A stretch of 64,000 bases of DNA. Origin: Octopus vulgaris (taxonomy: Eukaryota). The stretch is from NCBI GenBank assembly GCA_951406725.2, contig OX597817.1, positions 86,056,001-86,120,000 on the forward strand. Direction: 5' to 3'. Below, in pieces: positions 1,644-63,804 of the stretch. Under the pieces are notes generated by a model. It searched no databases and was not told the origin of the DNA. It was given only the letters and a program-made list of their open reading frames with translations. Every line of letters begins with the position of its first letter. Position 1 is the first letter of the stretch. Both the position numbers and the translations under genes were made by a program.

Positions 1644-1784
1644 TTGACTAAGGGCTTAGCTATAGTCCATAGCAGTTTCTGAAGACCAGGTAATTTGGTG
1701 TTTCCAGCTTTCATTGAAACAAGGTCTTCATCTTGACCTTCATCAATGTATTGCTTGAGAATGGTCATAAATTCACCTTCAGTT
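1644..1784 (-). CDS. INPPL1: SHIP-family 5-phosphatase, coding exon 5; gene continues beyond the window start
   Basis: 141-nt exon with acceptor tttcttcctttatcag and donor GTAAGA, phase 2 to 2. Encodes TEGEFMTILKQYIDEGQDEDLVSMKAGNTKLPGLQKLLWTIAKPLV, resembling the SHIP1 post-SH2 helical region (AIQDYLSTQLAQDSEFVKTGSSSLPHLKKL, recalled). Confidence 0.88.
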
Positions 1785-2469
1785 CTGATAAAGGAAGAAA
1801 AGACACAAATTATATAAATATACACATAACTGTTATATATACTTTTAAAGAATCACTATCAAAATCACACAGTCCCTTTGGTTTATATAATAATTCCAAT
1901 CAAAACTGATTCACTGTTAACTTCAGGTTTTCAAGCCTTAAGCATATACATAACTATTATGAAATTTGATGACAAATTATTACCTAAACTTTTCAAAACA
2001 TATATTTTATAGAAAAACAAAAACTAGATGAGTTTAAGATGGATGAATATCAATATCTTCCTACATCAGTATAACTCATGACATACAACCATTCCAACTC
2101 CTTTATCTTGTAAGCAATGTATGATATCACTGAGTCTTCCTAGAGTAATCTCATACTACCAAATCTCTTGCAAAGCTATTAATTTTGTAGAGTATGCATG
2201 TATGTAAGTTGCAAAATGTGACAACAGTGACCCTATTACAGCCACTAGTTAGAAAGGTGGATATCTTGGTTACTGATAATAGAGACAGTTATCCTCACTA
2301 ATAAGAAATAATAGCACATATGCCCTTCAAGTTTATGTGTAGAATGTAAAAAACTGATACTGTACATAATAAAATATTCTTTCTGCTTTTGTAGGAGATG
2401 GATGTGTGTGAGAGAGAGAACTGGATGTGTAATACAGTGACATCTTATCTCTAAGTTACTAACATCATA

Positions 2470-2760
2470 AGATCTGCCCTTGCCATTTCTCCTCATGTCT
2501 TCTACTATGAGGTCTTCCATTCAACAGAAAGCACTTCTTCCTTCAAAAGTCATTGCCTAATTGTATAAAATATCTATAAAGCACAGAACACATCAATCAA
2601 TGCCATTAATGTTCAGCCACTCTCAGTTCACTTGTGCTCCACTTCTCTTAATATAAGTTTATGTAACATATCCAATGGATCACTCAACTCATTTTTCTCA
2701 TGCCTCTGCTCTCATGTTACAATACCACCACATAGAATGACATACCTTACTCAATATGGT
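2470..2760 (-). mobile_element. Old RTE LINE 3' ORF fragment
   Basis: Degenerate similarity to the RTE C-terminal region (LRWMC...VEG...RGR...W) seen in the younger copies in this window. Confidence 0.45.
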
Positions 2761-3042
2761 GTTTGTATAATATACTTAATATGTATTTATGGTTTCTAGA
2801 CAGTTTCTTACAAAGATTGACATTATCTAATCAATATCACTTTCAGATCACTTATTAGATAACTGCTGTTACCTACTGATTTAAGGCCATGATCTAGTTT
2901 TGATACTTGACTGATACAAATTATCTTGTGCAGCTAATACTGTTGGCAAAACCCCACAATCTCTCAGTTTTGTTTTGTTCTTCTCAAAAACTGATATTAT
3001 ACACTCATCAGGGATCAATTAAAGTAAATAAGACCCACTTAC

Positions 3043-3151
3043 TTGGACAAATCTAATCTGGCAAAATTCTTTAAGAATTGCATTCGAAGAGTACTGACAG
3101 TATTATGCCGTGCACTGGGATCTGCTGCATTGGCTTCAAAATCATCATCAT
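3043..3151 (-). CDS. INPPL1: SHIP-family 5-phosphatase, coding exon 4
   Basis: 109-nt exon with acceptor ccattttcag and donor GTAAGT, phase 1 to 2, in frame with both neighbouring exons. Encodes (D)DDDFEANAADPSARHNTVSTLRMQFLKNFARLDLS(K). Confidence 0.88.
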
Positions 3152-59919: not shown

Positions 59920-62041
59920 ATGTGTGTTGTGTCTGGCAGTGTTGGCTATAGCTTGGTCATCTGTATAGTTAACCAGGTGATACACGAAGAAGTCATACCC
60001 AATGACTGGTGTAGCAGCATAATAGTCAACTGCTACAAAGGTAAATGTGATGTTTTCGATACAAATAATTTCAGAGGTTGTTGGATCAGGTAATGAAGAT
60101 CACGGAGAGGGTCATAGCCCAACTAATTAGGGAGAGAGTCAGTTTGGATGAGATGCAGTTTGGTTTCATGCCAGGGAAAAGCACCACTGATGCTATATTT
60201 CTGGTTAGACAGCTGCAGCAGAAATACCTCGCCAAAGATAAGCCCCTGTACCTGGTTTTTGTTGACATGGAGAAAGCCTTTGGCAGGGCCCCCTGGTCCC
60301 TTATCTGGTGGTCAGTGAGGAAACTAGGGATAGATGAATGGTTAGTGAGAGCCGTGCAAGCCATGTACAGGGATGCTGTCAGTAAGGTGATGGTTGGCAA
60401 TGAGTACAGTGAAGAATTCCGGGTAGGGGGTCCACCAAGGTTCAGTCCTCAGCCCCCTCCTATTTGTCATAGTTCTCCAGACAATAACGGAGGAATTCAA
60501 GACAGGATACCTCTGGGAGCTCCTCTATGCTGATGACCTTGCTCTAATTGCTGAGTCACTATCAGAACTAGAGAAGTTTCAAGTGTGGAAACAAGGATTA
60601 GAATCGAAGGGCCTTAGAGTCAACCTAGCTAAAACCAAAGTCCTAATAAGTAGGAAGGCAGGCAAACTTCAAATCCCTTCAGGTAGATGGCCCTGCTCGA
60701 TCTGTAGGAAAGCGTAGGTAGAAACTCTATAAGATGTATCCAATGTAAGCTATGGACACTAGAGGTGCAGCAATATCAAAGGAAGGCTAACTGGGAGGAT
60801 AGCTTTTGTATGTGGCAGATGCTTGGGAGCTATAAATAACACTGAAAATGTGCAGAGAACAACTTCTGCCACATTGCAGGGAGAAAAACTAGAAGTAGTT
60901 GATAGCTTCTGTTACCTCAGTGATCAAGTCAGTAGCGGGGGAGGGTGCGCTGAAAGTGTAGCTGCTAGAATAAGAATAGCCTGGGCTAAGTTCAGAGAGC
61001 TCTTACCTCTGCTGGTAACAAAGGGCCACTCGCTCATGTGTACGAACAGCCATGCTACATGGCAGTGAAACATGGGCTGTGACCGCTGAGGACATGTGTA
61101 AGCTCGCAAGGAATGAAGCCAGCATGCTCCGATGGATGTGTAATGTCAGTGTGCATACTCGACAGAGTGTTAGTTCCTTGAGAGAAAAGTTGGACCTAAG
61201 AAGCTTCAGATGTGGTGTGCAAGAGAGACAACTGCGATAGTATGGTCATGTGGTGAGAATGGATGTGGATAGCTGTGTGAAAAAGTGCCACACCCTAGCA
61301 GTTGAGGGAACCTATGGAAGAGGTAGACCCAGGAAGACCTGGGATGAGTTGGTGAAGCATAACCTTCAAACATTGGGCCTCACCGAGGCAATGACTAGTG
61401 ATCGGGACCTCTGGAAATATGCTGTGCTTGAGAAGACTTGGCAAGTGCAAGTGAGACCATAACCTTGTAGCCTATGCCAGGGGTGAAACCAGTCCACTTC
61501 TACTTGCCTTTCCGTCATTGGACACTAAACTCTGCTTGCGAAGACCTGTTGAGGCAAGTGAAATCGAAATCAAACTCGGTGACTGGCATCCGTTGCTAGT
61601 GGAGCGCTATGAGTACCATACAAGTGAGATCATTGCCAGAGCAACAAGCTGGCCTTCGTGCCGATGGCATGTTAAAAACACCATTTGAGCGTGATCGTTA
61701 CCTGCATCGCCTTACTAGCACTTGTGCTGGTGGTACGGGAAAAAAAAACATTCGAGCGAGGTCGTTGCCAGTGCCACTGGACTGGCTCTTGTGCAGGTGG
61801 CACATAAAAAGCACCATTTGAGCATGGCTGTTGCCAGTACCACCTAACTGGCCCTCGTGTCGGTGGCACGTAAAAGCATCCACTACACTCGTGGAGTGGT
61901 TGGTGTTAGGAAGGGCATCCAGCTATAGAAACTCTGTCAGATCAGATTGGAGTCTGGTGCAGCCATCTGGTTCGCCAGACCTCACTCAAATCGTCCAACC
62001 CATGCTAGCATGGAAAGCGGATGTTAAACGATGATGATGAT
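59920..62041 (+). mobile_element. RTE-clade LINE, 5'-truncated (RT, internal Cys/His finger, 3'UTR, (GAT)n tail into (TA)n)
   Basis: IPNDWCSSIIVNCYKGK, QFGFMPGKSTTDAIF, FVDMEKAF, YADD at 60526-60537, finger at about 60688-60822, FCYLSD and RGRPRKTW, with several frameshifts. Confidence 0.93.
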
Positions 62042-62619
62042 ATATATATATATATATATATATATATATATATATTTCACACTCTGAGATCAAATCTTTT
62101 CAATTCAACTCTGGGGCATGATGCTTCTTTTCCTTTTGATTGTATTTGTAATTCAAAGTTCTAACCTTGCTGTAGTGTATCATACTGATCCGGCTTAAGA
62201 ATTGCATCAAAGCTATAACTGTATATGCAATACCCACTCACTCAGTCATTAATTTCATTGGTAGGATTTCATTGCTGTGGTTAATCATAAATCTACCATA
62301 TACATATTGTCATTATCATTATCATTTAACATCCATCTTCCATGCTGGTATGAGTTGGGCAGTTCAGCAGGGTCCGATGAGTCAAAAGACTGTGCTATAT
62401 TCCAGTGTCTGCTTTGGTATTGTTTCTATGACTGGATGCTCTTCCTATTGCCAGCCTCTTTACAAAGTATACTAGGTGCTTTTTTTCTGTGGCACTGGTA
62501 ATGGTGAGGTTGCCATGTAGCTAGCAATTGCATATGAGAGATGTAAATCAGTTTTGTGAGATGAAACATGTAAAGAAAGTATTTTTCCAAAAGAAAAAAA
62601 ATGTTATGCAGCTCACAGA

Positions 62620-63460
62620 TTATTTCATCAATGCCTGTTTTCCTTAGTGATCACTAGAATACTGTGTGTGATACCTTGTCAAATGCCTTCTCCTGGTCAA
62701 CAAAGTCCAGGGATAATGGTTTACTCTTAGTAAAATACTTCTGCAGTTTCTTCACTAGGAAGATTGCATCTGTCATTCATTTCACAGGCACAAAACCAAA
62801 CTGCATTTCATTTATGTCTACCCTGTCATGAATCAATTGTGGTATGACTCTCTCTCTCTGACCTTCATAACCTGATCCATAGTTTGATTCTTCTATATAA
62901 TTGCATCTTTCTTCAGTATCACCTTTGCATTTTTAACAGTTTACAATGATATTGCTATGCCAGTCATTGGACCCTTTAAAAATTCAAGTGTAACAGTGTA
63001 ATCCTCTCATATCTGGTTATATTGCTACAGTACACACATTCTCCTCACATTTCTGGTTGTACTGCTACTACATGCACAAACATTCTAGATCCCATTTCAA
63101 AATACCCCACTCACCAATGATACAGCCACTAGTTCAATGGCATATTGTTTCCTTTCTCTGCTTGCTCTCTGATCTAGCTAGCTGCACACCACCACTGTCC
63201 AAACTTTCGTATAATATCTGTTTTCTCAGTTGTCTTTTTGGCTACATCTCATGACCCAAATGCCAACTAAACATTGCATTCAATTCTTCTTTCCCTAAAA
63301 CTACACTATAGAATTCTCTCCTTATCTAACCTACAGATGTTCAAACTGAGCATCAACTACATTGAGCACTACAATCTAGGAGGGTCTGCAAAGATCTTGG
63401 GTTTTTTTTCTACCACTACAACTAATTTTGATAACATTATTTGCTTGAAATTTCTCAAGT
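62620..63460 (-). mobile_element. Decayed RTE LINE RT N-terminal fragment
   Basis: Minus strand reads NDWHSNIIVNC.KCKG, EMQFGFVP, DAIFLVKKLQKYF..SKPLSLDFVDQEKAFDKV. Confidence 0.75.
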
Positions 63461-63689
63461 TTTTGTAGTGCTCAGTTAAACAAGTCAGAACTTGATATAA
63501 TACAAAATAATATTGTTTTAATCATAATGCTAATATTTGGCTATTAGCTGGCTGCATAACAACATTAATATCTTTTGCCTTAATTAATTTTCCGAAGATG
63601 GTTTTACATTAAAACTATTTTAGGATAAATCAGAATTATTCTTGGAAAATAACACACCATGTTTATTTTGTGCTGTTTTCATTTTCCAG

Positions 63690-63804
63690 ACAATAAGTTA
63701 TTTGAATCTAGCACCACGTTGGTTATTAAAAATGAACAACTCAAAGTAGAAGCTGCTAAATTGAAGGAAGAAAATATCAGTTTACATATAAGAGGAGATG
63801 CTAG
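63690..63804 (+). CDS. ATG16L1: ATG16L1-like, coding exon 2 (start of coiled coil); gene continues beyond the window end
   Basis: Acceptor ttttcattttccag and donor AG|GTAAGT. Phase 1 joins exon 1 to give HNKLFESSTTLVIKNEQLKVEAAKLKEENISLHIRGDA, matching human QYNKLLE followed by heptad-like sequence. Confidence 0.9.

Follow-up and report, generated by a model that had tools for sequence, protein, structure and literature searches.

A 64-kb window of the 2.8-Gb genome of Octopus vulgaris (G000:C4:86056001-86120000), the whole stretch of DNA analysed here, carries the 5' parts of a SHIP-type phosphatase gene (SHIP, minus strand) and an ATG16L1-like gene (ATG16, plus strand), members of the same two gene families that are neighbours in human. 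Close linkage of the two genes in the bilaterian ancestor is very probable, and their strict adjacency in that ancestor is probable. On balance, we lean slightly toward the view that the octopus pair represents this ancestral bilaterian linkage, surviving head to head and likely held together by one short promoter island. The window contains the first five SHIP coding exons and the first two ATG16 exons; a distance of 39,409 bases separates the two start codons, which are directed away from each other. The initial annotation of this DNA, which placed the two genes side by side with no other host gene recognisable between them, was confirmed, and the identities that it gave to both genes were borne out as follows.

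The five SHIP exons make 197 stop-free codons, and all 197 residues are shared with SHIP of Octopus sinensis (P0001). The remainder of this protein, which has 1123 residues in all, corresponds to further exons in the right order and strand, as far as about 38 kb left of the window. Canonical GT donors follow all five exons and AG acceptors precede the four internal ones. P0001 has the domains SH2, C2, 5-phosphatase, C2 and SAM (PF24150, PF22669 and PF24147 for a 5-phosphatase with SHIP-type C2 flanks). Since 5-phosphatase, C2 and SAM exons lie downstream in the same gene, an SH2-only adaptor like SH2D1 was ruled out. The SH2 exon was the only match among the 12 candidates scored genome-wide, and the other 9 of the 11 5-phosphatase matches in the genome are on three other contigs. 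The octopus protein stood beside that of Sepia, inside the molluscs, in a quick tree of 25 rows that held neither a SHIP1 row nor an outgroup phosphatase. Because octopus has a single SHIP gene and vertebrate genomes have undergone duplications, this gene is likely co-orthologous to both vertebrate copies INPP5D and INPPL1, and thus neither the SHIP1 nor the SHIP2 label fits alone. As a family member, it would be expected to act as a 5-phosphatase on phosphatidylinositol 3,4,5-trisphosphate (PI(3,4,5)P3). SHIP-type proteins are also present in cnidarians and sponges, and the protein of the sponge Halichondria (P0003) has SH2, 5-phosphatase, C2 and SAM domains, so the SHIP family is older than bilaterians. 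No arthropod protein was found among the 120 best SHIP matches. In a metagenome scan with the SHIP alignment, 79 of the 80 listed loci showed 26-39% identity and were taken for other 5-phosphatases.

Similarly, the two ATG16 exons make 72 codons, 70 of which encode residues shared with ATG16L1 of O. bimaculoides (P0311). With fifteen matched segments, including coiled-coil and WD40 exons, the gene reaches about 75 kb beyond the right end of the window. P0311 matched PF08614 (E 4e-39) and PF00400, that is, both the ATG16 coiled coil and the C-terminal WD40 propeller are present, and the PF08614 exon of the gene was the best of 128 genome matches (E 3e-13). FastTree placed the octopus protein within the molluscs among 27 rows, none of them a named ATG16L2. 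Again, the single copy and the genome duplications point to co-orthology of octopus ATG16 to both vertebrate copies. As for the other genome matches to the ATG16 profile, 114 weak ones come from one 46-kb array on the minus strand (G000:C17:1843715-1890060, L043-L046), whose open frames reach 539 residues; it is likely a tandem repeat with a coiled-coil-like translation. An intron of ATG16 contains a LINE-type (long interspersed nuclear element) open frame of 954 residues on the plus strand (L024, about 87.7-90.6 kb in window coordinates), which suggests a young LINE insertion.

Between the two genes, neither a Pfam scan of the 150 longest of 682 filtered open reading frames (ORFs) nor a crude exon finder found a coding gene in the 39-kb interval, but only transposon remnants. 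Reverse-transcriptase matches occurred in four of the scanned ORFs and Tc1-type transposase in three; the remaining matches were one PHD/C1 within a LINE remnant and two below the cut-off. The exon finder gave just two weak candidates in the interval, and as a control it recovered four exons of a PRPF18-like neighbour and several of a G3BP-like one without training on either, though its codon model is weak when cross-trained. A small or non-coding gene may still lie within the interval. The interval also holds a Tc1/mariner-type transposase remnant (29487-30349, minus strand), inserted next to a LINE remnant, and a 1.3-kb AT/AC microsatellite run (38220-39490) containing 400 AC units.

Indirect evidence extends the linkage to many other invertebrates. 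SHIP and ATG16 were regarded as co-located when their carrier sequences were of identical size, leaving out species with one protein listed. By this proxy, both genes are on one chromosome or scaffold in 27 of 35 cases (14 of the 21 species in both homologue lists and 13 of 14 further assemblies), including small shared scaffolds of 316 kb in Mizuhopecten and 778 kb in Lingula. As a proxy for adjacency, the distance between the accessions or locus tags of the two genes was taken in 23 annotation sets; Lingula, Mizuhopecten, Bulinus, Mya and Dreissena gave no value. The gap was 1-2 records in six of the 23 sets (Patella caerulea, Littorina, Argopecten, Crassostrea virginica, Owenia and Pecten), with consecutive records in P. 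caerulea (SNE40_000591/592) and the annelid Owenia (CAH1781563/564), and the accessions of the two genes were interleaved in Haliotis rufescens. From this order, limpet, periwinkle, scallops, oyster and Owenia likely also have SHIP and ATG16 side by side. Gaps were also short in hemichordates and amphioxus (Ptychodera 10, B. floridae 14, Glandiceps 38 and B. lanceolatum from ENA 46), and were 43 in H. asinina, 65 in Sinanodonta and 95 in one amphioxus hybrid. If 1000-3000 records per chromosome were in random order, a gap of 1-2 would have a probability of 0.001-0.004 and gaps of 10-46 one of 0.007-0.09, although this null is rough and related species are not independent.

Adjacency in a cephalopod, gastropods, bivalves and an annelid suggests an origin of the pair at or near the base of Lophotrochozoa, and, given that the genes are adjacent in vertebrates and near each other in hemichordates and amphioxus, the bilaterian ancestor likely had them closely linked. 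Thus, the idea of the initial annotation that the linkage predates the protostome-deuterostome split gained support from other molluscs, the annelid and these deuterostomes, but the linkage was not unbroken: the pair was separated several times, in amphioxus, heterobranch gastropods, Sinanodonta and likely also sea stars. The same annotation pointed to the loss of much ancestral microsynteny in coleoid genomes. The pair is indeed kept in octopus, but it is not exceptional, because squid is reported to keep 275 metazoan microsyntenies and a scallop 216 (PMC9023564), so that its survival is not surprising in itself.

In vertebrates, the distance between human INPP5D and ATG16L1 is reported to be no more than 44 kb, and some patients have a transcript in which exon 25 of SHIP1 is fused to exon 2 of ATG16L1, the downstream gene (PMC5972310). 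This fusion implies a tandem orientation in human, in agreement with the same-strand human neighbours of the initial annotation; the head-to-head arrangement that it read in octopus was confirmed as well. The same two flanking genes on each side are described for human, rat, dog and chicken (PMC3782427). The flanks in octopus (G3BP-like and PRPF18-like) differ from those of human ATG16L1 (SAG, DGKD, USP40, NEU2 and NGEF), and thus the conserved unit is just the SHIP–ATG16 pair. The second vertebrate copies are co-located as well: INPPL1, ATG16L2, ARRB1 and NEU3 are placed in one horse region, which gives co-location and not order (PMC8532986). This set parallels INPP5D, ATG16L1, SAG and NEU2. 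In human, we take INPPL1 and ATG16L2 to be separated by several genes.

The co-location of both vertebrate copies bears on the possibility that adjacency arose twice, with SHIP and ATG16 sharing an ancestral linkage group and becoming neighbours independently in lophotrochozoans and vertebrates. The differing orientation would agree with this, and some coincidences are to be expected among thousands of human neighbour pairs. Moreover, strict adjacency was found in none of the invertebrate deuterostomes tested (gaps of 10-800), a result that also weakens our own reading. On the other hand, the four deuterostome annotations with gaps of 10-46 records, each with a low chance under random order, fit drift from an adjacent or nearly adjacent start, and INPPL1 and ATG16L2 would have to be accounted for too. 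We therefore regard a double origin as very unlikely.

The second part of our reading concerns the 39 kb between the start codons. The CpG content outside repeats, expressed as the observed/expected ratio (CpG o/e), was 0.16, 0.38 and 0.14 across 13.7-46.5 kb, and 0.19-0.20 in both coding spans, and it was at least 0.52 in 14 of 20 evenly spaced contig samples. Two-kb bins below 0.45 made up 14 of 16 in the interval, 61 of 68 in the coding spans and 27 of 100 in the evenly spaced samples. Methylation in octopus is reported to mark the bodies of a subset of genes and to be low in intergenic DNA (PMC9476566). Since the interval is as CpG-poor as the coding spans and precedes the coding regions of both genes, a 5' intron of SHIP is its most plausible interpretation. 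Splice sites are in line with this. The acceptor 37 bases above the SHIP ATG scores 8.4, inside the range of SHIP's own acceptors (6.7-17.5), and the donor at 51841 is one of two minus-strand AG/GTRAGT sites in 13.7-53.3 kb, about 1.2 kb from the ATG16 start codon. In addition, SHIP isoforms of oyster, scallop, mussel and limpet diverge in sequence at about this distance above the corresponding ATG, a pattern expected from alternative upstream exons. Together, CpG content and splice sites suggest that most of the 39 kb is SHIP 5' intron, and with modest confidence we predict that SHIP and ATG16 both start from one island at 49–54 kb. The flanking genes carry similar CpG islands at their 5' ends. 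The top-scoring donors of the island, at 48604 and 48452, were set aside, as they are within short repeats. As a separate observation, bivalve SHIP isoforms (P0007, P0016, P0031 and P0417; oyster, mussel and scallop) have a conserved alternative N-terminal peptide above SH2 with the pattern Cys-Gly-Phe and Trp-Pro-Trp; a search for this motif in the octopus interval gave two partial three-letter matches, which we judged to be chance.

If the transcription starts of SHIP and ATG16 are truly about 1-5 kb apart, both within the island, few breakpoints would be harmless, because separation without cutting either gene would need a break in this small promoter stretch. Separation would thus be slowed and rare but not forbidden. 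To change the orientation without separating the pair, one gene would have been inverted locally, on the line leading either to vertebrates or to octopus. Such a constraint would be structural and modest, and would not need the SHIP and ATG16 proteins to act in one pathway.

Several further observations weigh against this reading. SHIP and ATG16 are on different scaffolds in 8 of the 35 cases (Aplysia, Lymnaea, Physella, Candidula, Plakobranchus, Tegillarca, Acanthaster and Branchiostoma belcheri), five of them heterobranch gastropods; each mismatch involves a scaffold of less than 2 Mb. Adjacency outside octopus and vertebrates rests on accession order, and gaps exceed 200 in 9 of the 23 sets, all of them RefSeq (both Asterias, Liolophura 274, Pomacea 324, H. 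cracherodii, Tubulanus 479, P. vulgata 602, B. lanceolatum and a second amphioxus hybrid). Submitter locus tags follow position, whereas RefSeq numbers do so only loosely. The two Patella species fit this expectation, being consecutive in P. caerulea and 602 records apart in P. vulgata, and large RefSeq gaps were thus not counted as proof of separation; alternatively, the P. vulgata gap may reflect a real rearrangement. A divergent promoter common to both genes cannot keep the human pair together, because that pair is in tandem. With regard to the island, the repeat-matched CpG control was mixed, with a decay of 0.93 for two copies of one repeat and 0.28 for seven copies of another; the 23 kb past the SHIP 3' end are just as CpG-poor and yielded no exon; one class of octopus genes is reported to be methylated across the promoter (PMC9476566); and the SHIP 5' exon is itself a prediction. 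At least half of the words of ATG16 exon 1 were present in 20 of the 24 sequencing runs listed, none of which is recorded as RNA.

The repeated separations and the change of orientation would also be expected if the linkage were ancient but neutral, the pair simply remaining unseparated in slowly rearranging lineages without any regulatory hold. Co-regulation was absent in most stable locus pairs (PMC13508932), in agreement with this. However, a neutral history does not readily account for the persistence of just SHIP and ATG16 while their flanks differ between octopus and human, nor for two 5' ends that appear to face one CpG island, and we consider it rather unlikely as the whole explanation.

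Another possibility is that the pair was kept for co-expression: SHIP converts PI(3,4,5)P3 to phosphatidylinositol 3,4-bisphosphate on membranes where the ATG16 complex lipidates ATG8, and shared control would couple these steps. Yet the pair was broken several times, and ATG16L1 is broadly expressed. Human SHIP1, in contrast, is predominantly haematopoietic (PMC5540589). A human study, as cited in PMC5540589, associated lower SHIP1 with the ATG16L1 risk allele, and a single-nucleotide polymorphism in linkage was proposed as an expression quantitative trait locus of INPP5D. These results contrast with two human cohorts, in which no link between the risk allele and SHIP1 level was reported (PMC5540589; PMC5972310), and with an INPP5D variant that acts independently of the ATG16L1 allele (PMC10119186). 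Conserved microsyntenies as a class are described as co-expressed in squid and octopus (PMC9023564). Thus, the coupling of PI(3,4,5)P3 turnover to autophagy that the initial annotation suggested is possible but found no support, given the differing orientation and the two cohorts, and we give co-expression as the cause only a slim chance. It is a bolder and, to us, improbable proposal that SHIP–ATG16 forms a cis-regulatory unit of bilaterian age, with a divergent promoter in lophotrochozoans and elements serving both genes after an inversion on the vertebrate line. If true, the two genes at the Crohn's disease locus 2q37.1 would be regulated as one unit, and molluscs would reveal its ancestral wiring.

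Coordinates of SHIP, ATG16 and predicted 5' features in the window (strand "." for a feature of both genes)
Feature	Positions	Strand	Remarks
SHIP coding exon 5	1644..1784	-	identical to P0001; gene runs on about 38 kb left of window
SHIP coding exon 4	3043..3151	-	identical to P0001
SHIP coding exon 3 (SH2 end)	4100..4250	-	identical to P0001
SHIP coding exon 2 (SH2)	8692..8755	-	AG/GT, in frame, identical to P0001
SHIP coding exon 1 (start codon, SH2 N-terminal half)	13514..13641	-	PF00017 E 3e-12; identical to P0001
Predicted 5' untranslated region of first SHIP coding exon	13642..13678	-	splice acceptor 37 bases above ATG
Predicted SHIP 5' intron(s), CpG-depleted, transposon-rich, no coding gene found	13679..49000	-	from CpG o/e
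CpG-retaining island, ATG16 start and likely SHIP start	49000..54000	.	non-repeat CpG o/e 0.76
Candidate non-coding SHIP first exon, ending in consensus donor	51841..52060	-	upper boundary tentative; donor score 7.9; single copy in genome
ATG16 coding exon 1 (start codon, N-terminal helix)	53051..53153	+	identical to P0311 residues 1-34; GT donor
ATG16 coding exon 2	63690..63804	+	gene runs on about 75 kb right of window

Outside the pair, the next coding gene found past the SHIP 3' end is on the minus strand about 79-87 kb left of the window (L010:3423-10000 and L009) and has an RRM domain (PF00076); we take it to be G3BP-like from its sequence. The CpG-poor 23 kb before it (L006-L008, 39-62 kb left of the window) resembles a gene body and could be a read-through or non-coding transcript. 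On the other side, the PRPF18-like gene (PF02840 and PF08799; L030:631-8968, minus strand) and ATG16 lie tail to tail. A CpG island at about 158-161 kb seems to be common to this PRPF18-like gene and a plus-strand gene, the exons of which resemble an endonuclease/phosphatase with no Pfam match. A long open frame resembling a ubiquitin-specific protease, largely in one exon, was also noted (L033:4290-5237, minus strand).

These findings would date the neighbourhood of two disease genes, ATG16L1 (Crohn's) and INPP5D (Crohn's and Alzheimer's), before the mollusc–vertebrate split. Lineages that keep, flip or lose the pair are natural experiments, with which the disputed link between ATG16L1 allele and SHIP1 level can be tested as old shared regulation or mere proximity. 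Moreover, an apparent 39-kb gap in a large genome such as that of octopus can conceal a compact divergent promoter, as predicted here.

Finally, the pair can be compared with known systems. The human locus 2q37.1 holds the same two gene families as neighbours, but it is in tandem with a read-through-like fusion, whereas the octopus genes diverge, so that no such SHIP–ATG16 fusion is possible there. The domain order of octopus SHIP (SH2, first C2, 5-phosphatase, second C2 and SAM) matches that of vertebrate SHIP2, while human SHIP1 lacks the SAM domain. No paper on SHIP–ATG16 linkage outside vertebrates was found in a literature search that did not extend to Table S2 of PMC3514665; the main texts of PMC3514665, PMC13652810 and PMC13508932 do not mention the pair, nor do the supplements of synteny papers searched by name, where tables may use species gene ids. 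The pair resembles the coleoid microsyntenies, in which old local order is described as kept through genome reorganisation, although those blocks need at least three genes and SHIP–ATG16 has two (Schmidbaur et al., 2022, PMC9023564). It is closest to the conserved ancestral microsyntenic pairs (CAMPs), tightly linked unrelated genes in distant animals, of which about 600 were described, with 5'-5' as the commonest class (54.8% in human and 68.6% in Lottia) and enriched among conserved pairs (Irimia et al., 2012, PMC3514665). Like them, SHIP and ATG16 share no domain, being non-paralogous, and in octopus they are 5'-5', the orientation of a bidirectional promoter pair; their orientation is not conserved with human. 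In a bidirectional promoter pair the transcription starts would be expected within about 1 kb, and the candidate SHIP first exon is about 1 kb from the start codon of ATG16. The CAMP rule as described needs four major lineages, and strict adjacency is indicated in three (vertebrates, molluscs and annelids), while the hemichordate gap of 10 records and the shared 778-kb scaffold of Lingula may or may not add a further lineage. As such pairs are common as a class, the surprise is moderate, and SHIP–ATG16 is one more conserved pair of the known CAMP type.

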